Origin: Thermomicrobiales bacterium
GTDB taxonomy: Bacteria > Chloroflexota > Chloroflexia > Thermomicrobiales > UBA6265
Direction: 5' to 3'
Assembly: GCA_045804965.1 (NCBI GenBank)
Contig: JBJMMD010000016.1
Span: forward strand, 293,642 to 357,641
Length of the DNA: 64,000 nucleotides
Shown here one piece after another: positions 1-33,580 of this stretch. How positions within the stretch are numbered: the first letter of the stretch is position 1; each line of letters starts with the position of its first letter. The position numbers were made by a program, and so were the translations under genes. Under the pieces are notes generated by a model, which was given only the letters and a program-made list of their open reading frames with translations, did not search any database and had not been told where the DNA came from.

Positions 1-1
1 C

Positions 2-181: not shown

Positions 182-211
182 CCCTCAAGATAGGCAATCT
201 GTCCGACTCAT

Positions 212-243
212 GCCCTCTCCTGCGCTTGCGCGCAGGAGAGGGC
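212..243. repeat. GC-rich perfect hairpin (14-bp stem, 4-nt loop), related to repeat family B
   Basis: gccctctcctgcgc ttgc gcgcaggagagggc. It has the same ccctctcc..ggagaggg hairpin theme as the elements at 4452-4607 and 48152-48279. Confidence 0.7.
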
Positions 244-381
244 GACCCCTTAAGGCCAGGCAAGTAGTCTTCCAGACCTTAGGTTAATCTCCACTCATGA
301 TCCAAATCGGATGCATCCCCTCGCCGATCTTCTTCGGCGTGCCGCCCGCGGGTATCCGCACGCGGCGAGGATCCTGGAGAA

Positions 382-1581
382 CTACCTACTTGATCGGTCC
401 TCGCTAAGCGCGACCGCCAGAGCTGAAATTAATTCGTCAACTTGTTCTTCTTGCCAAACCAGCGGCGGGAGCAAGCGGAGAGCCAGGTTCCCCGCCGGCA
501 ATGCGAGGACGCCGTTTTCTTGCAGGCCCCGCAGTGTTGGCGTCACGCGCTCTTTGAGCTCAATCCCGATCATCAAGCCCCGGCCGCGAACTTGACGGAC
601 CTTTTGGCTGTTGAGGGTTTCAATCCGGCCGATGATCTGGGCCCCGAGTACCTCTGATCGCGTGCAAAGATTGCGCTCTCGGAGCGCGGTCAGCGTTGTT
701 ACAGCCGCCCGGCAGGCGAGCGGATTGCCGCCGAAGGTCGTGCCGTGCGCGCCGCTCGGCATGGCACTGCTGACGGCGTCTGTGACGAGGGTGAGACCGA
801 TGGGGAATCCGTTCGCCAGCGCCTTGGCTGTGGCCAGGATATCGGGCGTGACGCCGGAGCGGGAGATCGCGAATGGGACGCCGGTCCTGAATGCCGTTTG
901 AACTTCGTCGGCAATCAAGAGCGCGCCGTGGCGCGTTGTCAGATCGCGGGCGGCCTGAAGGTAGGCGTCGTCGGCCGGATAGATGCCCGCTTCGCCCTGG
1001 ATCGGCTCGATGATGACGGCGGCGGTTTCGCCGTCGACCGCCGCTTCGAGCGCCGCGACATCGTTGAAGGCAACATGCGTGGCCGGCAATGGCAGAGGCT
1101 CGAACGGCGTCCGGTATTTCGGGTCGGCGGTCGCGGAGAGTGCGCCGAGGGTTCGGCCGTGGTAGGCGCGGCGGGCGGCGACAATGTTGGGCCGACCGGT
1201 AGCCGCGCGGGCGAACTTGAGCGCGGCTTCGATCGCTTCCGCGCCCGAGTTGCTCAGGAACGCGCGCGGCAATCCAGCGGGCGCGATCTTGGCGATTTCG
1301 GCCAGCAGCTCGGCCCGCACGTCGCTGTAGAAGCTCTGGTGGCAGGTTGATAGCGTCGCGAGCTGTTCGGCGAGGGCAGCAGTAAACTCTGGGTCGGCAT
1401 GACCGAGAACCGCAACCCCGTAATTGCTCATCGCGTCGAGGTAGCGGCGGCCCTCGCTGTCAAACAGGTAGGGACCTTCGCCGCGGAGCAGGGCGATTTC
1501 CCGCTTGGCGTAGAGCGGGAGTTGATGATCGTGCTCGATCCGCTGAATCTCGTCGAGCGCCATCGTGGCGGTCGTGGTCAT
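382..1581 (-). CDS. lysJ: class-III PLP aminotransferase, [LysW]-aminoadipate semialdehyde / acetylornithine aminotransferase type
   Basis: 399-aa ORF with SNSGAEAIEAALKFAR, LLIADEVQTAF and TTFGGNPLA motifs. It is the last gene of the LysW operon. Its ATG overlaps the stop of the upstream gene (ATGA at 1578-1581). Confidence 0.85.
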   Translation of the reverse strand: MTTTATMALDEIQRIEHDHQLPLYAKREIALLRGEGPYLFDSEGRRYLDAMSNYGVAVLGHADPEFTAALAEQLATLSTCHQSFYSDVRAELLAEIAKIAPAGLPRAFLSNSGAEAIEAALKFARAATGRPNIVAARRAYHGRTLGALSATADPKYRTPFEPLPLPATHVAFNDVAALEAAVDGETAAVIIEPIQGEAGIYPADDAYLQAARDLTTRHGALLIADEVQTAFRTGVPFAISRSGVTPDILATAKALANGFPIGLTLVTDAVSSAMPSGAHGTTFGGNPLACRAAVTTLTALRERNLCTRSEVLGAQIIGRIETLNSQKVRQVRGRGLMIGIELKERVTPTLRGLQENGVLALPAGNLALRLLPPLVWQEEQVDELISALAVALSEDRSSR

Positions 1582-2108
1582 ATGGACTCCTTGGTCATGA
1601 GCGGTCGGATAATCTGTTCAATCCAATCTTGGATCGGCTCACCCGAGTGATATATCACTTCACCTTCATCGGCTGACGGAGGTTGCATCTCGCCAGAAAC
1701 CAGGGCGAAATCCTCGTCTCGCACGTGCGGCCGCGCGTTCGTCGTTCGGTTTTCGTCGCGCCGTTGCTTGGCCTCTGCCTCCGAGACGTCGACATAGACG
1801 ATCGTCGCCGGCACGCCCTGTCGGGCCGCGATCCGCGTCAAGCGCTGGCGGTGAATCTTCCGATAGCTCGTCGCGTCGAACACGGCTGAGTTTCCCGCCG
1901 CCAACACCTCGTCCAGTTTCTGAAATGACGCGCGATACGCCTCGATCCAGTCTTCGCGAGTGGGTGCCTCTGCATTCAAATCCAATCCGCGCTCGCCATG
2001 GACCGAATCGAGCTCAACATGCGCGAGATCAAGCTGTTCCGCCATCGCCTTCGCCAGCGTCGATTTACCGGAGAACGGCAGACCGCAAAGGATGAAGAGC
2101 CGTTGCAC
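1578..2108 (-). CDS. P-loop ATPase/kinase-like protein (AAA_33-like)
   Basis: Walker A motif GLPFSGKST. I chose GTG at 2108 because the ORF-track N-terminus (to 2213) runs into the palindromic repeat at 2148-2277. It is translationally coupled to lysJ. Confidence 0.65.
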   Translation of the reverse strand: MQRLFILCGLPFSGKSTLAKAMAEQLDLAHVELDSVHGERGLDLNAEAPTREDWIEAYRASFQKLDEVLAAGNSAVFDATSYRKIHRQRLTRIAARQGVPATIVYVDVSEAEAKQRRDENRTTNARPHVRDEDFALVSGEMQPPSADEGEVIYHSGEPIQDWIEQIIRPLMTKESI

Positions 2109-2147
2109 GCAATGAAATTCCTGTCCATATTCGCCCGGGGCTGAAAT

Positions 2148-2277
2148 CACCCAGAGGGTACCCGGGGCTACAAATGACGAAGCCCTTCCAGGGCTGAACA
2201 CGACGCTTTCCACACGGGCCGTCGTCAGCCGGTCTTGAGCCGGCTTCGTAGGTTGAGCCCCGGGTACCCTTCGGGTG
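2148..2277. repeat. 130-bp palindromic MITE/REP-like element (family C)
   Basis: The 21-bp terminal arms cacccagagggtacccggggc (2148-2168) and gccccgggtacccttcgggtg (2257-2277) are inverted repeats with 2 mismatches. Internal segments also pair (acgaagcc/ggcttcgt, ggctga..cgacg/cgtcgtcagcc). Confidence 0.75.
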
Positions 2278-2329
2278 CTTGAGGCCCGCGCACGCGGCCC
2301 AGGCGCTCAGGCTCTATGCGTTTCCGCGT

Positions 2330-3157
2330 CTACTCTCTTTGGGCCACTACTGCCCGCCGCACGACTGTCCCCTCGCCCGCCAGCGCTCTTTGCACCGGAT
2401 GTTCAACCCGCGCGTCCGCAAATTGGACGCGCTCGACACCGCGCTCGACCGCGCCGACCGCGGCTTCGACTTTGACTTTCATGCGGCCGGCCGCGGCTGC
2501 GAGCGCCGTATGCGGCGAAGCGGCATCGATTTCGTGAATCAGCGTCGATTCATCCACTTTGTCGGCGAGGAGACCTGGCGTGTCGGAGAAGAAGATGAGC
2601 GTCTCGGCCCCGAGCGCGATTGCCAATTCGAGCGCCAATTTGTCGCCGTCGACGTTGATGGGAATCCCGCCCTCACTCAGTGCCGGAGGGGTCAATACCG
2701 GCAGGTAGCCGCCGTCGAGCACGAGCCGAACCAGGCGGGTATCGATCGCTTCCAAGGTACCGGCGTGATCGTCGCGGAGCACTTTCGGTTTGCCGTCTTC
2801 CGCGCCACGAATGACGGCCTTGCGGCGGCCGAAGGCAATGCGACCGTCGAGACCGGCCAGGCCGACGGCATTGACACCGGCCGCTTGCAGCTTGCCGACG
2901 AAGGTCTTGTTGACCTTGCCGCAGTAAGCCATCAACATAGCATCCATCGTTTCGCGATCGGTGTAGCGGGTGACGCGCCCCTTGTCATTCGTGATCATCC
3001 GCGGCGGCATCCCGAGCGCGGCGCTGAGGCGACTGAACTCAGTGTTGCCGCCGTGGACGAGCACGATCGGTTCGCTGATGGCCGCCAGGTCGGCCGCGAA
3101 CCGTTCATAGACGGTCTCATCGATTGCGGCTCCGCCGCCGATCTTGAGCACGAGCAT
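2330..3157 (-). CDS. lysZ: amino-acid kinase family: [LysW]-aminoadipate kinase / acetylglutamate kinase
   Basis: MLVLKIGGG.., VLVHGGN and INVDGDKLA motifs. ATG at 3157 is preceded by GGAGAAGGAAA. The ORF-track extension to 3292 covers an inverted repeat. Confidence 0.85.
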   Translation of the reverse strand: MLVLKIGGGAAIDETVYERFAADLAAISEPIVLVHGGNTEFSRLSAALGMPPRMITNDKGRVTRYTDRETMDAMLMAYCGKVNKTFVGKLQAAGVNAVGLAGLDGRIAFGRRKAVIRGAEDGKPKVLRDDHAGTLEAIDTRLVRLVLDGGYLPVLTPPALSEGGIPINVDGDKLALELAIALGAETLIFFSDTPGLLADKVDESTLIHEIDAASPHTALAAAAGRMKVKVEAAVGAVERGVERVQFADARVEHPVQRALAGEGTVVRRAVVAQRE

Positions 3158-3247
3158 CGAGTAAGTTTCCTTCTCCTTGTCATTCCGAAGGTCTTCCACC
3201 GTCGTCCTGAGCGCAGATCCCCCATCAATCCGTGCGTATACCCCCTC

Positions 3248-3330
3248 GTCATGCCGAGCGAAGTCGAGGAATCTAGTCGTTTTTAAGGCCAAAGAAGAAC
3301 ACTAGATGCCTCGACATCGCTCGGCATGAC
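3248..3330. repeat. inverted-repeat element, family A (30-bp arms, 23-nt spacer)
   Basis: gtcatgccgagcgaagtcgaggaatctagt (3248-3277) versus the reverse complement of actagatgcctcgacatcgctcggcatgac (3301-3330): 28 of 30 positions match. It lies between lysY and lysZ. Confidence 0.8.
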
Positions 3331-3354
3331 GAAGACGGTCAAAGTCGAACCTGA

Positions 3355-4401
3355 TCAAATAGGATGCAATCCCGCGAAATCGATACCGCACGTTTCTTCG
3401 TAGCCGCAGCGGATGTTGAACGCCTGCACCGCTTGACCCGCCGCGCCTTTCATCAGGTTGTCGAGAGCCGCGATCACGACGACGCGATGGGAATGCGGAT
3501 CGCGCTCGAAGCCGACATCGCAATAATTGCTGCCCGAGAGGATCTTTGGTTCCGGATAGCGATGAATTCCCGACGACTCCTTGACGATCCGCATGAACGG
3601 CTCGTCCTTGTACGCCGCGCGGTAGATCAGCCAGAGGTCTTTCTCGGTCAGCGGCTCGCTCAGGAAGACGTGCGATGTGGCGACGATCCCTCGCACCGCT
3701 TCGATCGATGTCGCCGTAAACGCGATTTCCGGCTTGACGCCGTTGAAGGTCAACTCCTGGATGATCTCGGCGCTGTGCCGGTGGCCGGTCGGCTTAAACG
3801 AGCGAATCACGCCGCTGCGCTCAGGGTGATGGGAAGCCAAGCCCGGTCCGCCGCCTGAACCGGACGACCCCGTCTTCGCCTCGATCGTCGTTGGAATCCG
3901 GCGATCGACCACGCCCGCCCGGTAGAGCGGATAGAGCCCGAGGATCGATGTCGTGGCCATGCAACCGGCGCTCGAGATCAGGTCGGCGGAGCGGATCTCT
4001 TCCCGGTGCAGCTCCGGAATGCCGTAGACGAAGTTGCGGAGTTCACCAGCGAGCGTGTGTTCGTGGCCGTACCATGTCGGATAGGCGTCCGGGTTGTTGA
4101 GGCGGAAGTCGGCGCTGAGGTCGATGATGATTCTCGCCTTTTCCCGGAGCTCGGTCATTTTGTTCATCGACACCCCATGCGGGAGGGCGATGAAGAGGAC
4201 ATCGACCGGCGCCAGCGTTTCGACGCTCGTAAACTTCAGGTCGGTGCGCTTGCGCAGATTTGGGTGGATCGAGCGGACAAATTTACCGGCGCTTCGCTCC
4301 GACGTGACTTGGGTGAGACTCGCGCCAGGATGGTCGAGCAGGAGCCGCACCAACTCCCCTCCCGCGTACCCCGACCCCCCAACGACGGCGACATTGAACA
4401 T
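3355..4401 (-). CDS. lysY: [LysW]-aminoadipyl-phosphate / N-acetyl-gamma-glutamyl-phosphate reductase
   Basis: MFNVAVVGGSGYAGGEL Rossmann N-terminus, SSAGCMATT Cys motif, 348 aa. AAGGAG lies 10 nt upstream of the ATG. Confidence 0.85.
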   Translation of the reverse strand: MFNVAVVGGSGYAGGELVRLLLDHPGASLTQVTSERSAGKFVRSIHPNLRKRTDLKFTSVETLAPVDVLFIALPHGVSMNKMTELREKARIIIDLSADFRLNNPDAYPTWYGHEHTLAGELRNFVYGIPELHREEIRSADLISSAGCMATTSILGLYPLYRAGVVDRRIPTTIEAKTGSSGSGGGPGLASHHPERSGVIRSFKPTGHRHSAEIIQELTFNGVKPEIAFTATSIEAVRGIVATSHVFLSEPLTEKDLWLIYRAAYKDEPFMRIVKESSGIHRYPEPKILSGSNYCDVGFERDPHSHRVVVIAALDNLMKGAAGQAVQAFNIRCGYEETCGIDFAGLHPI

Positions 4402-4451
4402 TGAACCTGAACTCCTTAGTTTTCATCGACCGAGCTGTTGGCCAGCCCGGA

Positions 4452-4607
4452 TATTCCCTCAACCTCTGACCCCTTCTCCCTCGCGAGGGAGAAGGGGCAC
4501 CCTCGTAGCGGCTGGTATAAGACGAGGAGGACTATTCTTTATGCCTCATTAGCCGTCCCTCTCCCTTGCGAGGGAGAGGGTGGCGCGAAGCGCCGAGTGA
4601 GGAAGTT
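4452..4607. repeat. palindromic element, family B (degenerate copy)
   Basis: Hairpins ccccttctccctcgcgagggagaagggg (4470-4497) and ccctctcccttgcgagggagaggg (4557-4580), followed by tggcgcgaagcgccgagtgagg. It is collinear with the element at 48152-48279 and fills the lysX-lysY gap. Confidence 0.7.
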
Positions 4608-4610
4608 CCC

Positions 4611-5507
4611 CTAATCCGCAGCCGCCGCGGCCCCAACCTCGACCCGCCTCTCCCGACCCGCGCGGCCGACTTCGAGCACATAGTCGATGATGCGCGCGGG
4701 AATGTTGACACCGGTCGTGTCGATGCTATTGCGGAACTCCATCGTGTAATTCACTTCGTTGACGAGCAAGCCCCGATCGCTTTCGAGGAGGTCGACCGCG
4801 ACGACTCCGCCCCCAACCGCGCAGGCGGCTGCTCGCGACAACTGGTCGAGTTCGGGCGTGACCGGGCAATTACTGGCCAGTCCACCACGTGCGGTGTTCG
4901 TGATCCAGTGCGGTGAGTCGCGGTAGATCGCGCAGATCGTCTCGTCGCCGACGACGAATGAGCGGATGTCGCGACCTGGCTTGTGGACGTACTCCTGGAT
5001 GTAGAACGCGCCATGGTGGAACGAGCCGAGCGTCACTTTGTGTTCCAAAATCGCCTCCGCGGCGTCCCGGTCATTGACCCGTGAGAGCAGCCGGCCCCAG
5101 GAACCGATGGCTGGCTTCAAGACGACCGGATAACCAATCTCCTCGATTGCCTCCAACGCCGCTTCCGGCGTGAAAGCGATGATCGTGCGCGGGCTAGGCA
5201 CACCGCCGCGGACAAGCGCGGTTGTCGTCAGCAGCTTGTCGCCGCAGGTGTTGGCGACGTCGTAGGTGTTGACCGTCGGCACACCCCAGTCGTTCAACAC
5301 TTTCAGTGAATAGAGCGCGCGCAAATGGTTGATGCAACGTTCGATCACGACGTCGCAGGCGATCGATGGCCGGAGCAGATCGAGCTTCAATGCACGGTCG
5401 TCGAAGCGGACGACGTGCACACCCCTGCGCTCGAACTCGGTCAGGAGCAGCTTTTCTTCGACCCGGACCCGCGAGAGCAGGATGCCGACAGTTACCTGAT
5501 CGTCCAC
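4611..5507 (-). CDS. lysX: RimK/LysX-family ATP-grasp ligase (alpha-aminoadipate--LysW ligase type), paralog 1
   Basis: [25 protein letters not shown] and [15 protein letters not shown] motifs. GTG at 5507 has GGAGG 5 nt upstream. The ORF-track extension to 5657 covers the T-box leader. Confidence 0.8.
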
Positions 5508-5846
5508 GGATGCCTCCACGTTGCGCCGAGTGGCTGGTGAGCCTGATTCGTCTGTTCGACGCGCTTGCAACAATGCACAAAGCCCCCGTCCAAAGGACGG
5601 AGGGCTTCGCTCCGTGGTACCACCTTTGTTCGCCGGCCCTCGCGGGAACGGCCTCACCGGGCGCCAACACGCCCTGGCTCGGTAACGGGAGCACCCGGCC
5701 GGTTCTAATCCGGTGAGCTACTAGCTCATCGTTTCTTCCGGCGGCTCGGGGGTCTTCTTCAGAATCGGATCTCTCCGCGGACCTTGCACCAATCGTCCGC
5801 TCGCTGGGGCGCTTCCCCGTTCCTAGTCTGTCCCCGTCATTGCCTC
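5508..5846 (-). promoter_or_regulatory. T-box riboswitch leader (candidate Lys specifier AAG at 5754-5756)
   Basis: Read on the minus strand. K-turn GGC-AAU-GA-C-GGGG pairs with CCCC-C-GA-GCC. AG bulge AGCGA is followed by stem GCGGAC/GUCCGC with distal loop GAUUGGUGCAAG. T-box core AAAGGUGGUACCACGG lies at 5612-5627. The antiterminator is CAAAGG[UGGUACC]ACGGAG..CUCCGUCCUUUG. Confidence 0.85.
5568..5604 (-). terminator. intrinsic terminator of the T-box leader
   Basis: CCCUCCGUCC-UUU-GGACGGGGG stem followed by CUUUGUGCAUUGUUG. It competes with the antiterminator because both use the CUCCGUCC segment. Confidence 0.7.
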
Positions 5847-5855
5847 GTTGGTTCG

Positions 5856-5884
5856 ATTATCGCTACCGAGCCGCTCAGACGCAA
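5856..5884 (-). promoter_or_regulatory. candidate sigma70-type promoter for the T-box/lysX unit
   Basis: Minus strand reads TTGCGT (5879-5884), 17 nt, GATAAT (5856-5861). The predicted start falls a few nt before Stem I (about 5844). The -35 overlaps the stop codon of the upstream gene. Confidence 0.4.
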
Positions 5885-6792
5885 GGTGCGGCTGGTTGCA
5901 GATGGTTCACTTCCGCGATGTGCAGTGCCTCGCTCACGATCTCCGCAGCGATATCGATCTCAGTCGTCGACATCAGTCCTTTGAACTCGCCGCCCGTGTT
6001 GACTTCGACGATTTCCAGTCCTTCCTGTGTTTCGACGATGTCGACTCCGGCCAATCGAGCGCCGACCGCGGCGCACGCCCTGAGCGCGATCTCTTCGATC
6101 TCAGGCGTGATTTCGCAGGCGACCGAGATCGCCCCGCGGGCGGCGTTGGTGATCCAATGCTCGGAGGTTCGGTACGACGCCGCGAGCACGCGATCGCCGA
6201 CGACATAGGCGCGGATGTCGCGATCCGGTTTCTGGATGAACTCTTGAACGTAATAGATATGGTGATGAAACGAACCGAGCTCCGCCTTTTGGTCGAGAAT
6301 CGCTTTGGCCTGCTCGGGCCCGTTCGCCTTTGCCAGCAACCTGCCCCAGGACCCAGTCACCGGCTTGAGCACGACTGGATATCCGAGTTGCCCACACGCC
6401 TTCATCGCCGATTCGACCGAGAACGCAAGCAAAGTGCGCGGCGTGGCGATGCCGGCGGCTTCGAGGGCGAGCGAGCAGGCCGCCTTGTCGTCGCACGTCG
6501 TGGTCGCGGCCGAGTGATTGAGCGTGGGCACGCCCCAGCGCTCGATCGTGCGCAAGGTGTACTCCGCGCGGCTGTGGACGACACAGCGGTCGAGGACGAC
6601 GTCGACGCCCAGCCCAGCGGAATCGGCGGACCGAGCCGAGAGATCGAGCACGAGCTCGCGGTCGAAGAGCGGCTTCACTTCGATGCCGCGGTGGCGCGCC
6701 GCGTTCAAAATCAGTTTTTCTTCGTCCCGCAAATGGGAGACAAGAACCCCGAGGCGGACACTTGCCCGGCCGTTGGAGGCGTGGGTGCTCAT
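5875..6792 (-). CDS. RimK/LysX/ArgX-family ATP-grasp ligase, paralog 2
   Basis: [24 protein letters not shown] and GVDIVET..EIVEVN motifs. ATG at 6792 overlaps the lysK stop (ATGA). Whether the substrate is Glu or aminoadipate cannot be told from sequence. Confidence 0.8.
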
Positions 6793-7871
6793 AGCGCCGC
6801 CAGTACCTCCGTCAACACCCGTACGCCCCTCAGGTATTCGTCGAGCACGATGTGCTCGTCGGGCGTATGGTCGAGCGTCGCATCGCCCGGACCATAGGCG
6901 ACGATAGGGCAGCGCCATACCGGACCCACGACCGTCATGTCGGACGTGCCGAGCTTGACGGTGAATCGCGGCTCGCCGCCGGCGGCGCGAATTGCACGCA
7001 GGAACGGCGGGACAAGCCGCGAACGCTTGTCGGAGCGGTAACCTTCTTGCACACCGTCAAAGGTGAGCACAGCGTCACCCGCCAGCTCTAATATTTCGGA
7101 TTGCAATTCCCGAGTGTCCACATCGGGCGGCAGTCGCAAACCAATCGCCATTCGCGCTTCGTCGTAGAGCCCATCGCTCTCGGTCCACATGCCGCGAACC
7201 GACGGCGTGACGGCGTTGAACAGACCGCTCACGCCTTCGTTTCTGGCGGCGCAGGCAGCGGCGAAGGCGTTCCAAAATGCTATCGCCCGCTCGCCGACCG
7301 ATGCGCCGGGACCAGCCGCGTGGCGGCATGCCTGGCGTAACCTGTAGGCGATCGGCATGGAGCCGCGGTAGCCGAGGCAAACGGCGTCCCAGCCACTCGG
7401 CTCGCCGATGATGCAGAAGTCAGGCGCGGGCCAGGTCGCGACCGCGGACGCCCCGGGCGAATTCAACGATTCCTCGCCGACCGCACCGACGACCGTGACC
7501 GTCGCGTTCAATCGTTCGGCCGCCATCGCCGCGGCCGCGACGAAGGTGGCCAGCGGACCCTTGGCATCGACCGCGCCGCGACCGTGAAGCACGCCGTTTT
7601 CGATCCGGACGGGGATGTTGCCCGGCACGGTGTCGATATGCCCGAGGAGCACGACCGATTTCGGCCCTTCGCCGATTACGCCAACAGCGTTGCCGGCTTC
7701 GTCCCGGTAAGCGCGGAATCCGCGCGCGTCCATGTGCCGGCAGAGGTACGAGACCGCTTCGGCCTCGCCGCCGCTCAGGCTCGGAATGGCAACCATACCG
7801 CGCAAGAGATCGACATGGTCTTGGTCGGTCAACGTGGCGCCGGCGACTTCAAGCGGAGAGAGCGACGTCAT
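6789..7871 (-). CDS. lysK: M20 metallopeptidase, [LysW]-lysine/[LysW]-ornithine hydrolase type
   Basis: [10 protein letters not shown] and [11 protein letters not shown] motifs, about 360 aa. ATG at 7871 has GGGAGG 6 nt upstream. The ORF-track start at 8000 overlaps the upstream gene too far. Confidence 0.8.
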
Positions 7872-8760
7872 CTGGCACCTCCCGCCCGAGGGCTCCGCCC
7901 TGCCCGTCGTCGAGCAGTTCGACCGCAATCGCGTCAGGTCGCAATGAGCCTGCCCATTCGACGGCCAATTTCGCAATCGCCTCGGCGACCGTCGTCTCAC
8001 CGAGTGCGATGGCGTCCCGGAAATCGGGAATCGGATTGACGTTCCAAACGACGGCTCCGGCGGCCATGTGCGCCACCTCGATCCCGATCAGCGACGCGCC
8101 GAGCGCCTTCGCGGCCAGCTCGGCTAAACCGTAGGCCGCCTTGGGTACATCATGGTCATGGCTGTCGACAGCCACGGCGACTCCATCGACGACGATAACG
8201 GTGACCCGGTCCGAACCGAGCGCGATCCCGGTCTGCACGAGCCCAATCAGATCCGCCTTGGCGCCGAGCACGTGGCGGTGCTCGAACACGGCCTCAGCTG
8301 TGTCTTCATCGATCAGCACGATCTCTTTCGATCCGGGTGCCAGCGGCAAGAACGTCGCCGGATAGCCACAGCGGTCGAGCGCGAGCAAGGCCGCATCTTC
8401 GGCGCAGACCAAATCGGTCAAGGGCCGAGGGATGCCGGCGGCGGCAAGCGCCATCGCGGTCGCGAGGCGGTCAGATATCGCCGCCACGCCGGCGTCGATT
8501 ACGCGGACGCCTTTCGCCCGCCAGACCGGGAGCAGGGCCGCTGCGACAGCGCGGTTCTGGCAACGATCGATCATCACCTCGGCCACAGTGCCGTCGTTCG
8601 CCGGGGCGAAGAACGGCTTCGGCGGGCCCGGACAAATGGGGAGTGGCAAGCTAGTAGGGGCGAGCGGAAGCGCCGGAACGCCGGCGTCCGCCAGCGTCTT
8701 GATCAGCTGCTTCTCTTCGACTCGCACGCGCGTGCAGAGCACGCCTACCTTCGCTATCAC
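7849..8760 (-). CDS. divergent RimK/LysX-like ATP-grasp paralog 3, catalytic motifs apparently degenerate
   Basis: The N-terminus [15 protein letters not shown] parallels Lys[16 protein letters not shown]. However, it has [15 protein letters not shown] in place of [15 protein letters not shown], VVWNVNP in place of LVNEVN, and no HWITN. GTG at 8760 has GAGGAG 6 nt upstream; an alternative ATG is at 8793. Confidence 0.6.
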
Positions 8761-8814
8761 CGTTGTCTCCTCAATCCTAACGTTCATCCTCATTCGTTCG
8801 CGTTCGATCGATTC

Positions 8815-8948
8815 CGCCGGACTGAAGTCCGGCGCTGAAACGACGAAGTCCCATTCGGGACTGAAATCGTCATTCCGAGCCTGCCGAGGAATCTCGTGCT
8901 CCTACTACTGTAGAACGAACAAGATTCCTCGACTTCGCTCGGAATAAC
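8815..8948. repeat. cluster of three palindromic units, including a family A inverted repeat
   Basis: Hairpins cgccggact-ga-agtccggcg (8815-8834) and agtccc-attc-gggact (8847-8862). Family A arms gtcattccgagcctgccgaggaatct (8869-8894) and agattcctcgacttcgctcggaataac (8922-8948). It fills the lysW to RimK-paralog gap. Confidence 0.75.
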
Positions 8949-8950
8949 GG

Positions 8951-9114
8951 TTACTCACCCCAGTCCTCGCCTTCTTCCGGCGCCAATCCGAGCGTTAACG
9001 GACTCGTCCCGATGACTTCCAGCTCCGCGCCGCAGTCTGGGCAGGGCACGATTTCGCCCTGCTCGACCCCGCTCAATTCGATTTCCGCCCCGCATTCAGG
9101 ACATGCCGCCATTT
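8951..9114 (-). pseudogene. lysW: LysW amino-group carrier protein, reading frame broken by an apparent 2-nt insertion
   Basis: ATG at 9114 (GGAGAGGAA upstream) gives [18 protein letters not shown]. The frame then shifts at CTCT (about 9059-9062). The next frame reads [35 protein letters not shown]-stop, with the hallmark C-terminal EDWGE. The span is 164 nt, which is 162 plus 2. Confidence 0.75.
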
Positions 9115-9152
9115 ACTCGTTCCTCTCCGCTCGTTTAGATCGAATCGACCCC

Positions 9153-10196
9153 TCAGCACAACGTATGCAGCAGCAACGCTTTATGGACATGTAGGCGGTT
9201 TTCCGCCTGGTCGAAAATGATCGACTGCGGGCCGTCTGCGACCTCGGCCTCGACTTCTTCTCCCCGTCGCATCGGCAGACAGTGCATGAAGACCGCGGTC
9301 GGTTTCGCCATTGCCATCACGCCGGTCGTCACCCGGTAGGCTGCCAGCCTGGTCGCCTTCTGCGTGCTCTCGTTCTGGCCCATGCTCTGGTGGACATCGG
9401 TGTAGACGGCGTCGGCTCCGGTCACGGCCTCCTCGAGGCGCTCAGTGACGGTAATCTTCGCCCCGCTCGTCGCGGCCAGTCCCTGAGCGATGCGGACAAT
9501 TTCTTCCACGGGATGGTAGTCAGCGGGGGCGGCCACGTTGACGTTCACGCCCATCGCCGAGCAGGCGAGGAGCAACGAGTTGCACATGTTGTTGCCATCG
9601 CCGAGGTAGGCAAAGGTCTGGCCCTTGAGATCGCCGAACCGTTCTTGGAGCGTAAACAGATCGCCCAGCGCTTCGATCGGGTGAGACTTCTCGGTCAGAC
9701 CGTTGAACACGGGCACCGATGCGCCCGCCGCAAAATCGAGCAGGTCCTGGTGCCTCGCGATGCGGCAGGCAACGGCATCGAGATACAAGCTCATGATCTC
9801 GGCGGTATCCTCGATCGTCTCGCCCCGGCGCAGTTGCAAATCGTCGGTACCGAGGAAGATCGTGTGCCCGCCGAGTTGCTCCATTCCGACCTGGAACGCC
9901 GTCCGGGTGCGCGTGCTCGGGTGCTGGAAAACGAGGCCGAGCGTCTTGCCGGTCAGAAAAGTGTGCGGCAGACCACTCCGCCGCATCCCTTTCAGCCGAG
10001 CCGCGGTGCCGAGCAGCTCGTCGATCTCGTCCGGCGCCAGGTCGGTGTCGAAGAGGACGCTGCGGCCGCGCAGACGCAGGCTGATCCCCGTCGGACCGTA
10101 CTCGCCCCGCGTGAAGCGATCGTCCGGCAATGCCTCGCCATCCCACCCTTGACTATCGTGTTGTGTCGTCGCGTCTACCACATCGGTCCCTAACAC
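9153..10196 (-). CDS. ornithine carbamoyltransferase-family protein, paralog 1
   Basis: FQHPSTRTR, DVHQSMG, HCLPMRRGEEV and FDQAENRLH motifs. It has HPIE where the family has HPxQ. The start (GTG at 10196) is uncertain. There is a roughly 40-aa N-terminal extension before LRGRSVLFDTDL. Confidence 0.75.
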   Translation of the reverse strand: MLGTDVVDATTQHDSQGWDGEALPDDRFTRGEYGPTGISLRLRGRSVLFDTDLAPDEIDELLGTAARLKGMRRSGLPHTFLTGKTLGLVFQHPSTRTRTAFQVGMEQLGGHTIFLGTDDLQLRRGETIEDTAEIMSLYLDAVACRIARHQDLLDFAAGASVPVFNGLTEKSHPIEALGDLFTLQERFGDLKGQTFAYLGDGNNMCNSLLLACSAMGVNVNVAAPADYHPVEEIVRIAQGLAATSGAKITVTERLEEAVTGADAVYTDVHQSMGQNESTQKATRLAAYRVTTGVMAMAKPTAVFMHCLPMRRGEEVEAEVADGPQSIIFDQAENRLHVHKALLLHTLC

Positions 10197-11278
10197 ATCG
10201 TGTGGAGCAGGAGCGCCTTCGACAGATGCAGCCGGTTTTCAGCTTGCTCCCAAATGATCGATTGCGAGCCGTCGGCAACCTCCGCCGTGACTTCTTCTTC
10301 CCGGTGCATCGGCAGGCAGTGCATGAAGATCGCACTTGGCTGCGCCGTCGCCATGATCTCTTGGGTCACTTTGTACGGAGCGAGCGCGACCGCGCGGGCT
10401 GCGCCATCGGTTTGGCCCATGCTGACGTGAACGTCGGTATAGACTGCGTCCGCATCCTTCGCCGCGACGTAGGGATCGTCAGAAACGGCGATCTTCGCGC
10501 CCGAGGCGCTGCCGAGCCACGTCGCGTGCTTCACCACGTCCGGAGCGGGCTGGAATTTCTCAGGCGCCGCCACCGAGACGCTGATCCCCATCGCCGCACA
10601 CGACAGCAGCAACGAACACACGACGTTGTTGCCGTCGCCGAGATAGGCGAGCTTCAGCCCTGCCAGCGTGCCGAACTGCTCTTGCAGGGTCAGCAGATCG
10701 GCCAGCGCCTGCAACGGGTGGCTCGTGTCGGAGAGCCCGTTCAGCACTGGAATCGAGGCCGATGCATGCAACGTCTTCAGATCGTTGTGGTCGGCTACGC
10801 GGGCGACAATCGCATCAACGTACCGGCTCAAGATCTGCGCCGTGTCGCCAATCGTTTCGCCCCGCTTCATTTGCAGGTCGTTGACGCCGAGAAAGATCGC
10901 CTGACCGCCAAGCTGGGCCATGCCGGCTTCCAAGGCAACCCGCGTTCGCGTGCTGGGATGTTGGAAGAGCATGCCGAGCGTTTTACCCGGCAAGTACGGG
11001 TGCGGCTCGCTCTTTTTGTGCAATCGCTTCAGCCGGGCCGCGGTTTCCAGCAGCTCGTGAATCTCGTCGGGCGTCAGATCGGTGTCGACCAGCACACTTC
11101 GCCCGCGGAGGCGGGTCGAGAGACTAAACGTCGCGATCTTGGACGTGGTCTGACCGCCGAGGGACACGGTGCGCGCGGCCGCCGGCATATCCGGCGTGAC
11201 CACCGGCGCGGTCGGCATCGTATGCAGGGCAGGACTATCAACAATAGGGGGCTGTTTGGCAGTCGAGAAGTCTTCCAT
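10190..11278 (-). CDS. ornithine carbamoyltransferase-family protein, paralog 2
   Basis: FQHPSTRTR, HPLQALADL, DVHVSMG and HCLPMHREEEV motifs. ATG at 11278 has GGAGGG 8 nt upstream. The ORF-track extension to 11641 is the T-box leader. Confidence 0.8.
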   Translation of the reverse strand: MEDFSTAKQPPIVDSPALHTMPTAPVVTPDMPAAARTVSLGGQTTSKIATFSLSTRLRGRSVLVDTDLTPDEIHELLETAARLKRLHKKSEPHPYLPGKTLGMLFQHPSTRTRVALEAGMAQLGGQAIFLGVNDLQMKRGETIGDTAQILSRYVDAIVARVADHNDLKTLHASASIPVLNGLSDTSHPLQALADLLTLQEQFGTLAGLKLAYLGDGNNVVCSLLLSCAAMGISVSVAAPEKFQPAPDVVKHATWLGSASGAKIAVSDDPYVAAKDADAVYTDVHVSMGQTDGAARAVALAPYKVTQEIMATAQPSAIFMHCLPMHREEEVTAEVADGSQSIIWEQAENRLHLSKALLLHTMC

Positions 11279-11625
11279 GGTGGTTTCCCTCCGGCTCTCG
11301 TCCGAGACGAGACGCTTCGCGCCTGCAACGTCCATTCGTCGCGGGCCGAAGGGGCGAGAGGCGTCAACTCCCGCGGTACCACCCTTCTTGCGCTGGGTTG
11401 ACCGAAGATCGGTCTGAGCGGCAAAACCCTGCGCATCTCTCGGTTGTTGCTCGCTTGGGAACCACCCAACCGGACCTACTTGCCATCCATCACCGACGTG
11501 CAGGACGCTTTCTTCGGCCGGCCGCTCAGGGGCGCGTTCCGGGTTCGGGCGCAGTTCCTGGACTTCCACCGTCTCCAGGTCGCTTCGGCGCGCGAGCCCC
11601 GTACTCCTCCCCGTCAATGCGGGCT
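11279..11625 (-). promoter_or_regulatory. T-box riboswitch leader (candidate Arg specifier CGC at 11534-11536)
   Basis: Read on the minus strand. K-turn CCGC-AUU-GA-C-GGGG pairs with CCCC-U-GA-GCGG. The 5-prime specifier-loop strand is AGGAGUA. AG bulge AGCGA is followed by stem CCUGGA/UCCAGG with distal loop GACGGUGGAAG. T-box core GGGUGGUACCGCG lies at 11372-11384. The antiterminator is GAAGGG[UGGUACC]GCGGGAG..CUCUCGCCCCUUC. Confidence 0.85.
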
Positions 11626-11785
11626 GGATGAGCGACAACACTGCCGCCCGTCCGTGAATACCTAAAAATTCAACTGTCAGGCTGTGGGTGAGCGCTGGCG
11701 GGCGACCGTCAGCGCGCGGTACGGAACCGTCGCGTCGGTCGCCCGAGCGGAGAGCGGGAGAGGCTCTCCGGGTGTGTTGTCAGCC

Positions 11786-13045
11786 TCATCGCATGACCTC
11801 CGCGTCCTGATGCAACCGCCGGTCCCGCTGCGCGGCGACCTTCTGTCCGAGTCCGAAGAGCCGGATAAAGCCCTCCGCGTCCGCCTGCCGGTAGACGTCA
11901 TCGGCTCCGAACGTCGCCAGGTCCTCTTCGTAGAGGCCGAATGGCGATTTTCGCCCGACCGCGACGCACGTGCCTTTGTAGAGTTTCAGCCGAACATCAC
12001 CGCTAACTGGTTCTTGCGTCTTCTCCACGAAGGCATCAAGCGCGGCTTTGATCGGCGTGAACCAGAGGCCATTGTAAACCAGATCGGCATAGTTAATTGC
12101 AAGCTGATCTTTTTGTCGCATGGTGAGCTTGTCGAGCGTCAAGTGCTCAAGCTCGCGATGGGCGGTCGCCAAGATCGTCCCACCCGGCGTTTCGTAGATG
12201 CCCCGGCTCTTCATGCCGACAAGTCTGTTCTCGAGCAGATCGACCCGGCCGACACCGTGCTTGCCGCCGAGCTCGTTCAGCAGCGCGAGCAGTTCCAGCG
12301 GTTGCAGCGGCTGCCCATTAACCGCCACCGGCCAACCTTGGTCGAACGCCACGGTGACGTATTCGGCCTCATCCGGCGCGGCTTCGGGCGCCACGGTCAG
12401 TTCGTAGGCATCGCCCGGCGGCTCGTTCCACGGGTCCTCGATTGCGCCCCCTTCATGTGAGAGGTGCCAGAGATTGCCGTCGATTGAATAGATCTTTGCC
12501 TTCGTCGCCGAAACCGGCACGCCGTGCGCTTCCGCATAGGCGATCGCGTCTTCTCGCGATTTGATTTCCCAGTGCCGCCAAGGGGCGATGACCTTCAGCT
12601 GCGGGGCGAGCGCCTGATACGTCAGCTCGAAGCGAACCTGATCGTTCCCCTTGCCGGTGCAGCCGTGAGCGACGGCGTCCGCGCCTTCGAGCATGGCGAT
12701 CTCGACCTGATGCTTCGCAATCAGCGGCCGCGCCATCGAGGTCCCGAGCAGGTACTTGCGCTCGTAGATCGCGCCCGCCCGCAGCGTCGGGAAGGCGTAT
12801 TCCTTGAGGAACTCCTCGCGCGCGTCGACAACGTAGGCCTTCGATGCGCCACTCGCGAGCGCCTTCGCCTCGATGCTAGAGAGATCGTCCGGCTGGCCAA
12901 CGTTGACCGCGGTCGCGATCACTTCGCAGTCGAAGTGTTCTTTCAACCAGGGAATGATGCAGGACGTATCGAGCCCGCCGGAATAGGCGAGAACGACTTT
13001 ACCGAGTGTTTGTTTATCAGTGGAAAAAGCGACCGGCGCGCTCAC
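11786..13045 (-). CDS. argG: argininosuccinate synthase
   Basis: [13 protein letters not shown]-type ATP-PPase motif, 419 aa. GTG at 13045 has GGGAGG 6 nt upstream. Confidence 0.9.
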
Positions 13046-13087
13046 GTGGACCTCCCGAGGTGCGGTTCAACCAAACACGAAACGAGG

Positions 13088-13180
13088 CGCCCGCAGAGCG
13101 GGCGGATCCGATCATGCCGAACGGGGTTCGCCCGTCCGGCTGGTACGTGTACGGCTGATTCGCTTCGGAAGCGGCGCCAT
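13088..13180 (-). promoter_or_regulatory. candidate argG leader: 22-codon Arg-rich ORF plus a terminator-like hairpin
   Basis: The minus-strand ATG at 13180 gives MAPLPKRISRTRTSRTGEPRSA, with TGA at 13112-13114; 5 of 22 codons are Arg (CGA, CGT, CGT, CGG, CGT). Hairpin CGCCCGC-UCU-GCGGGCG (13088-13104) is followed by CCUCGUUUCGUGUUUGGUUG and sits 42 nt before the argG start. Confidence 0.3.
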
Positions 13181-13316
13181 GGATCAGTCCAAGAAATGCA
13201 CAACAAAACACGTGACCGACGTCACAATCTGCTGAGAGGGTAGAGGTTCTTGCCGAGGATTGTCAAGAGGAAGCGTCGAATGCGGACCGCTGCCGAACCA
13301 GATGTCCGCCAGTGAT

Positions 13317-13405
13317 ACGACGAAGTCCTTCCCAGACTAGGGGAGCGCGCTTGGGGTTCAGTGTCGAAGAGACTTCGTCGTGTTAGCCTGGACTTCTAGT
13401 CCGGG
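13317..13405. repeat. palindromic element, family C-related
   Basis: Perfect 11-bp arms acgacgaagtc (13317-13327) and gacttcgtcgt (13371-13381), then hairpin cctggact-tct-agtccggg (13387-13405). The same acgacgaagtc and ggact..agtcc modules occur at 8815-8862 and 22837-22853. Confidence 0.65.

Positions 13406-32269: not shown

Positions 32270-33580
<1,311 letters not shown>

Follow-up and report, generated by a model that had tools for sequence, protein, structure and literature searches.

A putative shared lysine/arginine LysW pathway with two ligases and two predicted T-box leaders in a Thermomicrobiales bacterium

In Thermus, the LysW amino-group carrier pathway makes lysine only, arginine is made by a separate acetyl pathway, and the lys cluster is regulated by leader-peptide attenuation. 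In Sulfolobus, one LysW and a shared set of LysZ, LysY, LysJ, and LysK work together with two distinct ligases, LysX and ArgX (Ouchi et al. 2013, as described in PMC12998189). Haloarchaea have an arginine-only pathway with a single ligase and make lysine via DAP; in Natrinema gari, which has an ArgW/ArgX pair, ArgX carries Ala-Leu at positions 258/259 and Ala at 203 and is glutamate specific in vitro (PMC10433800). Among T-box leaders, the translational set in TBDB is essentially Ile and actinobacterial.

Here we describe a 12.7-kb supercluster in a member of the Thermomicrobiales (Chloroflexota), at positions 382-13045 of the window (the whole 64,000-nucleotide stretch of DNA analysed). Like Sulfolobus, the locus has one LysW, one LysZ/LysY/LysJ/LysK set, and two ligases that differ at the same five pocket positions, with Asn-Ser/Thr replaced by Gly-hydrophobic at the last two motif positions of the second ligase. 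Unlike Sulfolobus, the host is bacterial, there is an additional, apparently dead ligase paralog as well as two ornithine carbamoyltransferase (OTC) paralogs, and T-boxes would exert control in place of the protein regulator LysM. The lysXA, lysY, lysZ, lysJ, lysK, and lysW genes are orthologous in kind to the lysWXYZJK genes of Thermus thermophilus and Deinococcus, and lysXA has the same FITNS motif as Thermus LysX, with 55% identity; here, in contrast, a second ligase, OTC, and argG join the cluster, and T-boxes are used. The two ligases also distinguish the locus from haloarchaea. The best reading, which we consider probable from the sequence comparisons, is a Sulfolobus-like shared lysine/arginine carrier pathway with two T-boxes and an independent bacterial origin. 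Our literature searches found no paper describing such a bacterial two-ligase, two-T-box LysW cluster and none joining a T-box with LysW or lysX.

Gene content and conservation of the cluster

All genes lie on the minus strand, in the order argG, Arg T-box, OTC1, OTC2, lysW, degX, lysK, lysXB, promoter plus Lys T-box, lysXA, lysY, lysZ, AAA_33 kinase, and lysJ (Table 1). Profile searches recovered every gene of the first-pass annotation in the order and on the strand it had given. Two longer open reading frames were rejected: that of OTC1 (10190-11641) runs into a T-box, placing the true start at ATG 11278, and that of lysXA (4611-5657) enters the other, placing the true start at GTG 5507.

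Table 1. Features of the cluster in window coordinates, listed in transcriptional order
Feature	Position	Strand	Profile match or sequence elements
argG, argininosuccinate synthase	11786-13045	-	NF001770 619 bits, cutoff 334
Arg T-box leader, predicted translational type	11279-11626	-	RF00230 match 11347-11626(-), 52.2 bits, E 4e-9, full model
OTC1 (argF), ornithine carbamoyltransferase	10190-11278	-	TIGR00658 370 bits
OTC2, diverged OTC paralog, 342 aa gene call	9153-10181	-	TIGR00658 355 bits
lysW, amino-group carrier protein	8951-9112	-	TIGR01206 77 bits, cutoff 53
degX, dead LysX paralog (predicted pseudoenzyme)	7849-8760	-	TIGR02144 only 72 bits, residues 17-206
lysK, [LysW]-lysine/ornithine hydrolase, 360 aa gene call	6789-7871	-	NF003367 412 bits, cutoff 363
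lysXB, second LysW ligase, predicted glutamate-specific (ArgX-like)	5875-6792	-	TIGR02144 304 bits, above cutoff
Sigma-70-like promoter, Lys unit	5856-5884	-	-35 TTGCGT 5884-5879, 17 nt, -10 GATAAT 5861-5856
Lys T-box leader, predicted transcription-terminating type	5568-5849	-	RF00230 match 5590-5849(-), 75.2 bits, E 4e-15, full model
lysXA, alpha-aminoadipate--LysW ligase	4611-5507	-	TIGR02144 342 bits
lysY, LysW-aminoadipyl/glutamyl-phosphate reductase (ArgC family)	3355-4401	-	TIGR01850 380 bits
lysZ, LysW-aminoadipate/glutamate kinase	2330-3157	-	NF010659 ([LysW]-aminoadipate kinase) 353 bits, cutoff 223
AAA_33 P-loop kinase-like protein	1578-2213	-	PF13671 77.6 bits
lysJ, LysW-semialdehyde aminotransferase (ArgD family, class-III aminotransferase)	382-1581	-	TIGR00707 404 bits

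The argG gene (start GTG 13045, Shine-Dalgarno [SD] sequence GGGAGG ahead) is located upstream of the Arg T-box and outside its control. OTC1 has an N-terminal extension of ~53 aa and the STRTR, HPLQ, DVHVSMG, and HCLP motifs, and its ATG after the SD is kept in 21/21 relatives. OTC2, found in about two thirds of relatives, is 61% identical to OTC1 and has HPIE in place of HPxQ (37/37 orthologs carry HP[IL]E); 8 nt separate its start from the OTC1 stop, so that it is probably translationally coupled to OTC1. The sole lysW copy in the cluster encodes a CPEC...CPDC zinc ribbon and a C-terminal EDWGE and has its own SD, GGAGAGGA. The lysK gene shares 23 nt with degX and 4 nt with lysXB, lysZ starts at ATG 3157 behind the SD AAGGAGAAGGA, and LysJ scores 401 bits against the LysJ_Th_th model, under its cutoff of 700. 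The AAA_33 kinase, whose stop overlaps the lysJ start and whose assigned start is uncertain, is limited to a subset of relatives, with 72% identity in L086 and 30 to 43% in a minority of loci.

Because the cluster order recurs in ~60 independent Thermomicrobiales contigs, it does not reflect chance; across these loci lysW, lysZ, lysY, lysJ, and lysK are each single copy within 10 kb on either side. The Arg T-box is universal, with lysW, lysK, and lysXB lying together with OTC behind it in 59/59 loci. The Lys T-box is present at 28 of 52 junctions, and in the 24 relatives that lack it the entire cluster to lysJ forms one unit behind the Arg T-box alone; the split into Lys and Arg units is lineage specific.

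Two LysW ligases and a degenerate paralog

Our mapping of the ligase pocket motif reproduces the published motifs of Thermus LysX, T. kodakarensis LysX/ArgX, and S. tokodaii ArgX. LysXA, with the aminoadipate-specific F-I-T-N-S in 81/81 sequences and ~70% identity to the LysX encoded in lysWXYZJK clusters of other phyla, is the ortholog of the single LysX of other bacteria. LysXB retains intact ATP-grasp and GSWGR elements and reads Y-S-A-G-L in the window; all 27 orthologs have Y/F-S-A/T/S-G-L (x-S-x-G-L), have lost the Asn-Ser pair, and form a separate clade with 90 to 96% bootstrap support. Of the two ligase paralogs first described as canonical, lysXA is of the LysX type, but lysXB, with its own motif and clade, is not canonical. 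The phylogenetic comparison that the first-pass annotation proposed indicates that the ligases are not both lysine type (FITNS against a Gly-Leu motif).

At positions 258/259, Asn-Ser/Thr corresponds to aminoadipate, and Gly-Phe (Sulfolobus ArgX) or Ala-Leu (the glutamate-specific haloarchaeal ArgX) to glutamate (PMC12998189, PMC10433800). The Gly-hydrophobic end of the LysXB motif matches this glutamate-specific trait of archaeal ArgX, and Ala203 and Leu259 are common to LysXB and haloarchaeal ArgX. Sequence identity of LysXB is 47% to Halarchaeum ArgX versus 43% to LysXA, and in our tree LysXB is a weak sister of haloarchaeal ArgX (support 47%). Orthology with Sulfolobus ArgX was rejected (0% bootstrap grouping with S. 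tokodaii ArgX); since LysXB never groups with that enzyme and its Y-S-A-G-L differs from I-Y-V-G-F, it appears to be an ArgX-like lineage of independent origin. The motif hints at specificity but does not settle it, because it is identical to neither of the published ArgX motifs (I-Y-V-GF, V-M-A-AL) and motif swaps in haloarchaeal ArgX failed to transfer specificity (PMC10433800). We infer that LysXB is glutamate specific.

The cluster could alternatively serve lysine only, with lysXB encoding a second aminoadipate ligase, redundant or specialised, or a ligase for another amino acid, a classical acetyl-glutamate arginine pathway elsewhere, and OTC and argG brought alongside by operon shuffling. 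Annotation pipelines do call lysXB orthologs aminoadipate ligase or LysX, the protein scores above the TIGR02144 cutoff, and in sister Ktedonobacteria an Arg T-box of the same family precedes classical argC-argB. We nonetheless regard this as quite unlikely, given that the aminoadipate-linked Asn-Ser is lost in every LysXB yet kept in every LysXA, that lysW, lysK, and lysXB invariably accompany OTC behind the Arg T-box, and that in the Chloroflexia MAG L138 an Arg T-box heads argG-argH-ligase-lysK-LysXB-type ligase (FSTGL). Among the matches listed, moreover, no Thermomicrobiales Arg T-box precedes argC or argB.

The gene first annotated as a degenerate RimK paralog, degX, proved to be a LysX paralog without catalytic residues. 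It has lost Lys129, the GSWGR loop, Glu170, GRDIR, Asp237, and Glu249, with a 16-aa deletion in the substrate loop, and is predicted to be catalytically dead; its N-terminal pre-ATP-grasp domain is conserved, and degX is present in all relatives.

Lys and Arg T-box leaders

Both leaders score below the RF00230 gathering score of 93 and were detected by an E-value scan. At Rfam gathering scores, a scan of the window listed nothing but a SAM riboswitch at another location.

The Lys leader has the specifier AAG at 5756-5754, followed by A at 5753, and its T-box core at ~5625-5613; AAG is found in 21/21 relatives, in which the base ahead of it varies. Its predicted terminator hairpin (5610-5577, with a weak U-rich tail) has an energy of -26.1 kcal/mol, versus -13.6 kcal/mol for the antiterminator. 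Stem I, the GAA-N-AAG-A specifier loop, the UGGU bulge, and alternative helices of typical energies resemble classical, Bacillus-type transcriptional T-boxes, whereas control of a LysW (aminoadipate) lysine pathway, the high GC content, the long insertions, and the score below the Rfam cutoff do not. The promoter and Lys T-box that had been proposed ahead of lysX were both located; the promoter overlaps the stop codon of lysXB, and its window copy is weak (8/12 matches, under the promoter-scan threshold) but better kept in relatives (TTGACA-17-TAATCT). No internal promoter was found for lysZ, lysY, or lysJ (0/54 lysXA-lysY gaps).

In the Arg leader, GAA (11539-11537) precedes the specifier CGC (11536-11534) and a purine, G, at 11533, with the core GGGUGGUACCGCG at ~11384-11372. 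Relatives have CGC (n = 52) or CGG (n = 3), a synonymous third-position change that keeps Arg, followed by G or A. The two specifiers therefore differ, AAG (Lys) against CGC/CGG (Arg), which bears out the earlier assignment of one leader to each amino acid. The anti-SD CCCCUUCGGC (11354-11345) pairs with the OTC1 SD GGAGGG (11292-11287), and CCCCUUCGG is paired with CCGAAGGG in every minimum-free-energy fold. In this sequestrator 87.6% of cells pair (slid controls, 31 to 70%) and 7 cells are compensatory; the antisequestrator, which has 6 columns in common with it, reaches 97.2% pairing. A U-tract terminator was sought in this leader and not found. The Arg leader is thus predicted to be an SD-sequestering translational T-box that directly gates only OTC1 and probably also the coupled OTC2. 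It resembles actinobacterial ileS T-boxes in that an SD sequestrator competes with a T-box antisequestrator helix without an intrinsic terminator, but it differs in having a full-length Stem I (internal specifier loop, AG bulge, distal loop), in reading an Arg codon, and in heading a six-gene operon. In other Chloroflexota, members of this T-box family precede carAB, argC-argB, argH-argG, and argG.

The scores of 75.2 and 52.2 bits might suggest degenerate, nonfunctional T-box relics in a cluster regulated by something else. We find this hardly credible: dozens of species, with compensatory changes, preserve the core, the specifier, the motifs of Stem I, and the two alternative helices; variation in the specifier is synonymous only; and the low scores are accounted for by large GC-rich insertions in Stems II and III. 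Both T-boxes are real, as judged from these conserved elements.

Proposed pathway and its regulation

In the shared pathway that we favor, one LysW and one set of LysZ kinase, LysY reductase, LysJ aminotransferase, and LysK hydrolase would be common to both branches. LysXA would load alpha-aminoadipate on LysW toward lysine and LysXB would load glutamate toward ornithine, which OTC1/OTC2 and ArgG would take toward arginine. Such sharing gains plausibility from Thermus, whose LysZ and LysY accept LysW-Glu intermediates as they are (PMC12998189). The differing specifiers and ligases support the bifunctional lysine/arginine interpretation first offered for this locus.

With charged tRNA-Arg, the 3' strand of the T-box helix would pair with the OTC1 SD and block translation; uncharged tRNA-Arg would stabilise the competing helix and free the SD. 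The Arg T-box would in this way gate OTC1 together with the coupled OTC2, and with them the step that commits ornithine to arginine. On the same transcript, strong SDs serve lysW and degX after 40- and 190-nt gaps, lysK and lysXB also have their own SDs, and translation of these genes from lysW to lysXB may be independent of arginine. The murein of Sphaerobacter contains ornithine (PMC3035262); ornithine would be needed for such murein in the order as well, so that only the OTC step may need arginine control. The Lys T-box, with its own promoter and terminator/antiterminator, would gate transcription of lysXA-lysY-lysZ-(kinase)-lysJ.

Within the same bifunctional pathway, the Arg T-box might instead control everything from OTC1 through lysXB by translational coupling, Rho-dependent polarity, or mRNA decay, in which case LysW and LysK would be arginine regulated and lysine and arginine would cross-regulate each other's synthesis, the puzzle raised by the first-pass annotation. 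The tight or overlapping packing of OTC1-OTC2 and degX-lysK-lysXB, the lack of any promoter-like site found between OTC1 and lysXB, and the 24 relatives organised as a single unit are in its favor. It is unlikely in our judgment, since the strong SDs of lysW and degX follow gaps, the Arg switch sequesters one SD without a terminator, and lysine synthesis would hinge on arginine starvation, which is hard to square with growth. Under gating restricted to the OTC genes, the LysW/LysK half of the puzzle largely dissolves, because the switch would directly act only on OTC1 and the downstream genes have their own SDs. The other half stands: LysZ, LysY, and LysJ would be needed for ornithine yet lie behind the Lys terminator with no internal promoter, so the model needs leaky termination or another input. 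Ribosome-free OTC1 mRNA could also exert polarity on lysW-lysXB, widening Arg T-box action beyond the OTC genes.

The two-ligase lysine/ornithine LysW design has so far been described only in archaea, and it is proposed here for a bacterium.

The LysW cluster and its conservation

All genes of the cluster lie on the minus strand, and profile searches recovered them exactly in the series that the first-pass annotation had read from sequence alone for positions 382 to 13045 (table below). Gene starts were fixed by Shine-Dalgarno (SD) sequences, by gene calls on identical metagenomic contigs, and by conservation; the LysW-encoding metagenomic contigs that we found were all 4.2 kb or shorter. LysW carries a zinc ribbon (CPEC...CPDC) and a C terminus (...GEDWGE) whose final residue is glutamate, and it scored above the cutoffs of TIGR01206 and PF21344. 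A GGAGG-type SD precedes each of lysW, degX, lysK, lysXB, lysXA, lysY, lysZ, and lysJ; OTC2 begins 8 nt past the OTC1 stop codon and has a weak SD, for which reason its translation is probably coupled to that of OTC1.

Genes of the LysW cluster, in window coordinates
Feature	Position	Strand	Assignment
lysJ	382-1581	-	profile search
AAA_33 P-loop kinase-like ORF	1578-2213	-	profile search
lysZ	2330-3157	-	[LysW]-aminoadipate kinase model, above cutoff
lysY	3355-4401	-	profile search
lysXA, LysX ligase	4611-5507	-	profile search
lysXB, second LysX ligase	5875-6792	-	profile search
lysK	6789-7871	-	[LysW]-lysine hydrolase model, above cutoff
degX, LysX-like ORF, weak match	7849-8760	-	profile search
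lysW	8951-9112	-	profile search; protein ends EDWGE
OTC2	9153-10181	-	ornithine carbamoyltransferase, profile search
OTC1	10190-11278	-	ornithine carbamoyltransferase, profile search
argG	11786-13045	-	profile search

The window has a G+C content of 62%, and its nearest relatives are Thermomicrobiales MAGs with 85 to 92% protein identity. About 60 Thermomicrobiales contigs share the order argG, Arg T-box, OTC1-(OTC2)-lysW-degX-lysK-lysXB, lysXA-lysY-lysZ-(kinase)-lysJ. All 59 loci whose sequence covers the upstream region carry the Arg T-box. Of 52 lysXB/lysXA junctions, 28 contain the Lys T-box, and in the remaining 24 the ligase genes lie 9 to 304 nt apart with no leader. Flanking genes in seven relatives are unrelated (ProRS, fumarase, and transporters), and in these seven none of hcs, argH, argJ, and carAB adjoins the cluster. 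No further arginine or lysine biosynthesis genes and no tRNA genes were found in the rest of the 64-kb window, and searches for argJ/A, argB, argC, and argD besides the cluster recovered none there or within 10 kb on either side of about 60 related loci.

In other Chloroflexota, in Acidobacteriota, and in NC10 the cluster is a plain lysW-lysX-lysY-lysZ-lysJ-lysK series, and its single ligase shares about 70% identity with lysXA. In one Chloroflexia MAG (L138), an Arg T-box precedes argG, argH, a less degenerate degX relative, lysK, and a LysXB-type ligase (FSTGL), and this locus gives the strongest link between the ligase type and arginine. KSB1, Calditrichota (Calditrichaceae), Cytophagia, and unclassified MAGs (loci L114 to L120; e.g., L116, 7857-15930) carry lysW-lysX-lysY-lysX'-(213-amino-acid ORF)-lysZ-lysJ-argG-argH, where lysX' is a separate duplication with changed pocket motifs such as I-A-A-S-C. 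LysW clusters that have two ligases and are linked to arginine genes seem to be widespread in Bacteria.

The kinase-like gene between lysZ and lysJ (AAA_33/KTI12-like) has a stop codon that overlaps the lysJ start; its product shares 72% identity with that of the closest relative, and in others the identity is 30 to 43% or the gene is absent. REP-like palindromes occupy several intergenic gaps of the cluster (3246-3332, 8880-8949, 4472-4495, and 4557-4580) and are not conserved in relatives; among them are a 32-nt inverted repeat (GCCGAGCGAAGTCGAGGAATCT...) in the lysY/lysZ gap, to which a copy in the lysW/degX gap is related, and CCCTCTCCCTCGCGAGGGAGAGGG, which occurs twice between lysXA and lysY. 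An Rfam "mir-61" match at 3245-3333 is the lysY/lysZ REP-like hairpin. Elsewhere in the window, a SAM riboswitch (30682-30783, plus strand; 77 bits, above the Rfam cutoff) is followed by an alpha/beta-hydrolase (MetX-like) ORF at 30867-32123 and a Cys/Met PLP enzyme (MetY-like) ORF at 32276-33580, together a predicted methionine biosynthesis operon. Two overlapping plus-strand ORFs (13532-14206 and 13770-15344) between them encode an MsbA-like ABC exporter whose N-terminal 100 residues are in a separate frame, a putative frameshift, pseudogene, or sequencing error, and its intact partner gene lies at 15752-17362. A 604-amino-acid protein (46337-48151, plus strand) carries a lysyl-oxidase domain (PF01186, 57 bits), which is unusual in bacteria.

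Two T-box leaders with different specifiers and expression platforms

At the Rfam gathering threshold, RF00230 reported no T-box in the cluster. By E-value, it matched 5590-5849 (minus strand; 75.2 bits, E = 4e-15) before lysXA and 11347-11626 (minus strand; 52.2 bits, E = 4e-9) before OTC1, both short of the 93-bit gathering threshold, which is a curation device and not a biological feature. Both leaders align end to end with the model (positions 1 to 219), their scores being lowered by long GC-rich insertions. The AG bulge and distal loop of Stem I (AGAGA...GGUGNAA) read AGCGAGCGGACGAUUGGUGCAAG in the Lys leader, with a specifier loop of GAA-G-AAG-A, and AGCGACCUGGAGACGGUGGAAG in the Arg leader, with a specifier loop of GAA-CGC-G; these features are kept in relatives. 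The T-box sequence with its UGGN bulge, which forms the antiterminator, is present in the leaders as AGGGUGGUACCGCG and AAGGUGGUACCACG.

The AAG specifier is invariant in 21 homologous Lys leaders, 2 of which precede lysW-lysX in other Chloroflexota, while the base before it varies. Of the distinct relatives, 52 have CGC and 3 have CGG as the Arg leader codon, followed by G or A; these counts include loci fetched by a pattern that requires a CGS specifier, and the 22 loci fetched independently of it gave CGC 20 times and CGG twice. Such variation between CGC and CGG is to be expected of a triplet that functions as an arginine codon. A genome scan with the exact Arg-leader Stem I pattern found, among the matches listed, the same T-box family before carAB, argC-argB, argH-argG, and argG, mostly in Ktedonobacteria and other Chloroflexota, and this association with other arginine genes confirms the arginine specificity. 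The corresponding scan of all genomes with the Lys T-box pattern matched at the lysXB/lysXA junction only. The earlier suspicion that the two leaders are T-boxes of different amino acid specificity is therefore borne out as read from the sequence, AAG (Lys) versus CGC/CGG (Arg), and each is predicted to bind its cognate uncharged tRNA. In two Ktedonobacteria loci (L154 and L162) the Arg T-box family heads classical argC-argB operons, and in Thermomicrobiales it heads the OTC-lysW operon; the acetyl pathway may possibly have been replaced by a carrier pathway under the same Arg sensor.

In the Lys leader (5568-5849, minus strand) an antiterminator of -13.6 kcal/mol competes with a terminator hairpin of -26.1 kcal/mol that is followed by a U-rich tail, the U-tract being interrupted in the window. 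The promoter of the Lys unit is sigma-70-like, with TTGACA-17-TAATCT in relatives and a weak form (TTGCGT-17-GATAAT) in the window; a sigma-70 scan of positions 1 to 13600 found nothing, and the assignment rests on conservation in relatives. No internal promoter for lysYZJ was supported, as 0 of 54 lysXA-lysY gaps reached a score of 9/12, fewer than in shuffles, and the same scoring against shuffles supported none in the gaps before lysW and degX. The 900-nt lysXA-lysY gap of relatives without the Lys T-box contains no regulator but a SAM-dependent methyltransferase gene (LDVGCGTGNYA), an insertion that marks a sublineage without the Lys T-box (L004, L008, L011, L014, and L029).

The Arg leader (11279-11626, minus strand) has no terminator. 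Its T-box helix has a 3' strand, CCCCUUCGGC (11354-11345), that can pair with the OTC1 SD, GGAGGG (11292-11287), and this sequestering pairing appears in every minimum-energy fold of 11 relatives. In 21 aligned leaders, 87.6% of the sequestrator cells are paired, versus 31 to 70% when the partner is slid, with seven compensatory cells; the competing T-box helix (antisequestrator) is 97.2% paired in 21 sequences, also with 7 compensatory cells, and overlaps the sequestrator in six columns. The OTC1 start codon 3' of the gated SD is kept in 21 of 21 leaders. That both leaders are nonfunctional relics seems to us barely credible, as it is contradicted by their conservation and covariation, and the Arg leader is a predicted translational T-box. 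Translational T-boxes in TBDB are essentially Ile T-boxes of Actinobacteria; the Arg leader shares its mechanism with those actinobacterial ileS leaders but belongs to another subfamily, having a full-length RF00230 Stem I where the ileS type has a truncated Stem I with the specifier in the terminal loop. In the interval 11279-11391, ACCACC directly 5' of the OTC1 start codon is complementary to GGUGGU of the T-box, in the window as in several relatives, so that the OFF fold could cover the spacer besides the SD; this pairing is only partly conserved.

Divergent ligase, degX, and OTC paralogs

Five pocket positions (182, 192, 203, 258, and 259 in Thermus LysX numbering) track substrate choice in characterized ligases, reading F-I-T-N-S in LysX (aminoadipate), Y-I-T-N-A in the bifunctional Thermococcus enzyme, and I-Y-V-G-F in Sulfolobus ArgX (glutamate), and ending in Ala-Leu in haloarchaeal ArgX, which uses glutamate in vitro; an Asn-Thr to Gly-Phe swap moves the preference of Sulfolobus LysX towards glutamate (PMC12998189, PMC10433800). 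A homology search with the lysXB protein returned close orthologs only, all automatically named LysX, and no characterized references, and we used reference sequences rebuilt from PDB alignments; the mapping recovered the three published motifs from the PDB sequences and is thereby validated. LysXA has intact ATP-grasp catalytic residues and GSWGR, and F-I-T-N-S is found in it and in all 80 orthologs. LysXB departs from this motif, reading Y-S-A-G-L with variants F-S-T-G-L and Y-S-S-G-L; Ser192, Gly258, and Leu259 are present in 27 of 27 orthologs, in all of which Asn258-Ser/Thr259 has been replaced by Gly-Leu. In the same alignment Halarchaeum ArgX reads V-M-A-A-L, so that LysXB has Ala203 and Leu259 in common with a glutamate-specific enzyme; with Sulfolobus ArgX it shares only the Gly-hydrophobic pair.

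Neighbor-joining trees, rooted on Escherichia coli RimK and containing few characterized references, placed lysXA inside bacterial LysX and lysXB in a separate clade (90 to 96% bootstrap), weakly sister to haloarchaeal ArgX (47%) and grouped with Sulfolobus tokodaii ArgX in 0% of bootstraps. Among the matches listed, lysXB-type genes at 65% identity or above occur in Thermomicrobiales only. LysXB is thus predicted to ligate glutamate and to work like ArgX, yet it falls outside the crenarchaeal ArgX orthologous group. It is quite unlikely that the cluster serves lysine alone with a redundant ligase and that classical arginine genes lie elsewhere in the genome, since this would leave both the conserved pocket change in lysXB and the Arg-T-box operons unexplained.

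DegX, the third paralog, no longer has the ATP-binding lysine, Glu170, GRDIR, the Mg-binding Asp/Glu, or GSWGR, the loop that grips the LysW tail, and 16 residues are missing from its substrate loop. Its N-terminal domain is retained, and the gene is present in every relative. In the tree, degX groups with the less degenerate ligase-like gene of the Chloroflexia MAG L138 (oriented 4491-5528), which keeps the catalytic Lys, Glu, and Asp and has GTGGQ in place of GSWGR; judged by these residues, it appears to be at an intermediate point of the decay seen in degX.

OTC1 has four of four ornithine carbamoyltransferase motifs (STRTR, HPxQ, DxxxSMG, and HCLP). OTC2 has three of four: HPxQ, the universally conserved carbamoyl-phosphate motif, is HP[IL]E in 37 of 37 orthologs, and DVHESMG is usual. 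This suggests that the chemistry or regulation of OTC2 is altered. OTC2 occurs in only about two thirds of the clusters (e.g., L004 and L008 to L011). Both proteins have N-terminal extensions before the usual LRGRS fold start (about 53 amino acids in OTC1 and about 33 in OTC2), which are of low complexity and poorly conserved.

A putative shared pathway to lysine and arginine

Taking as established the components, both sensors with their specificities, both expression platforms, and the divergence of the ligase pockets, we infer that LysXB would load glutamate and LysXA aminoadipate onto LysW, that LysZ, LysY, LysJ, and LysK would process both loaded substrates, and that OTC and ArgG would carry on to arginine. 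Such sharing is biochemically plausible because the lysine-dedicated LysZ and LysY of Thermus also act on LysW-Glu intermediates (PMC12998189). The Arg T-box would gate only the committed step from ornithine to citrulline, which fits the ornithine-containing murein of this order (Sphaerobacter; PMC3035262), as ornithine would be needed even when arginine is plentiful.

The first-pass annotation had posed a regulatory puzzle, with LysW and LysK under arginine control and LysZYJ behind a lysine attenuator. The first half largely falls away, as the Arg T-box appears to gate the OTC step and lysW and lysK have their own SDs; the second half stands, no internal promoter for lysYZJ, which would remove it, having been found. 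Control of the whole upstream unit by the Arg T-box through polarity, which would leave the original puzzle intact, is in our judgment unlikely. Ornithine synthesis would need LysZ, LysY, and LysJ, whose genes lie behind the Lys terminator. A candidate answer is leaky termination, possible because the U-tract is interrupted in the window; others are read-through from two promoters or regulation that is invisible in the sequence. Half of the Thermomicrobiales order is without the Lys T-box.

Recent work, including the latest evolutionary model, takes bacterial LysW pathways to be lysine only and assigns the bifunctional Lys/Arg state to archaea or to a hypothetical ancestor (PMC12998189, 2025). 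Our literature search turned up neither a bacterial LysW pathway with two ligases nor a T-box on LysW genes; the "lysW" of a lysine-riboswitch paper is an unrelated transporter. The arrangement works like LysX/ArgX in Sulfolobus, but this cluster is bacterial, its second ligase is no ortholog of crenarchaeal ArgX, and it adds a dead third paralog, a diverged OTC2, and T-box control. An extant bacterial lineage in which two ligases feed one carrier and one enzyme set would offer a natural test of the partitioning of promiscuous pathways, and lysXB would represent a second, independent solution to a glutamate-specific ligase. A single transcript with a translational Arg T-box on the OTC step only, followed by a transcriptional Lys T-box, would provide a compact case of amino-acid-specific control of shared enzymes, and the Arg leader would extend translational T-boxes past actinobacterial ileS. 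Because lysXB orthologs are currently annotated automatically as aminoadipate ligases, the arginine pathway is probably mispredicted in these soil Chloroflexota, which are abundant. The value for the fields of amino acid pathway evolution and T-boxes is real, on a basis of inference pending a ligase assay.

Taken together, the observations allow a tentative joint reading, possible rather than probable, in which Thermomicrobiales lack the acetyl-glutamate pathway and a single LysW pool would yield both lysine and the ornithine for arginine and ornithine-type murein. The second ligase would have evolved independently of archaeal ArgX, degX would be a noncatalytic partner or regulator that divides LysW between the two ligases, and OTC2, with its invariant HPxE, would catalyze a reaction other than standard ornithine carbamoylation. 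If this reading is true, then together with the KSB1, Calditrichota, and Cytophagia clusters it would make carrier-protein arginine synthesis a widespread trait of Bacteria with several origins.
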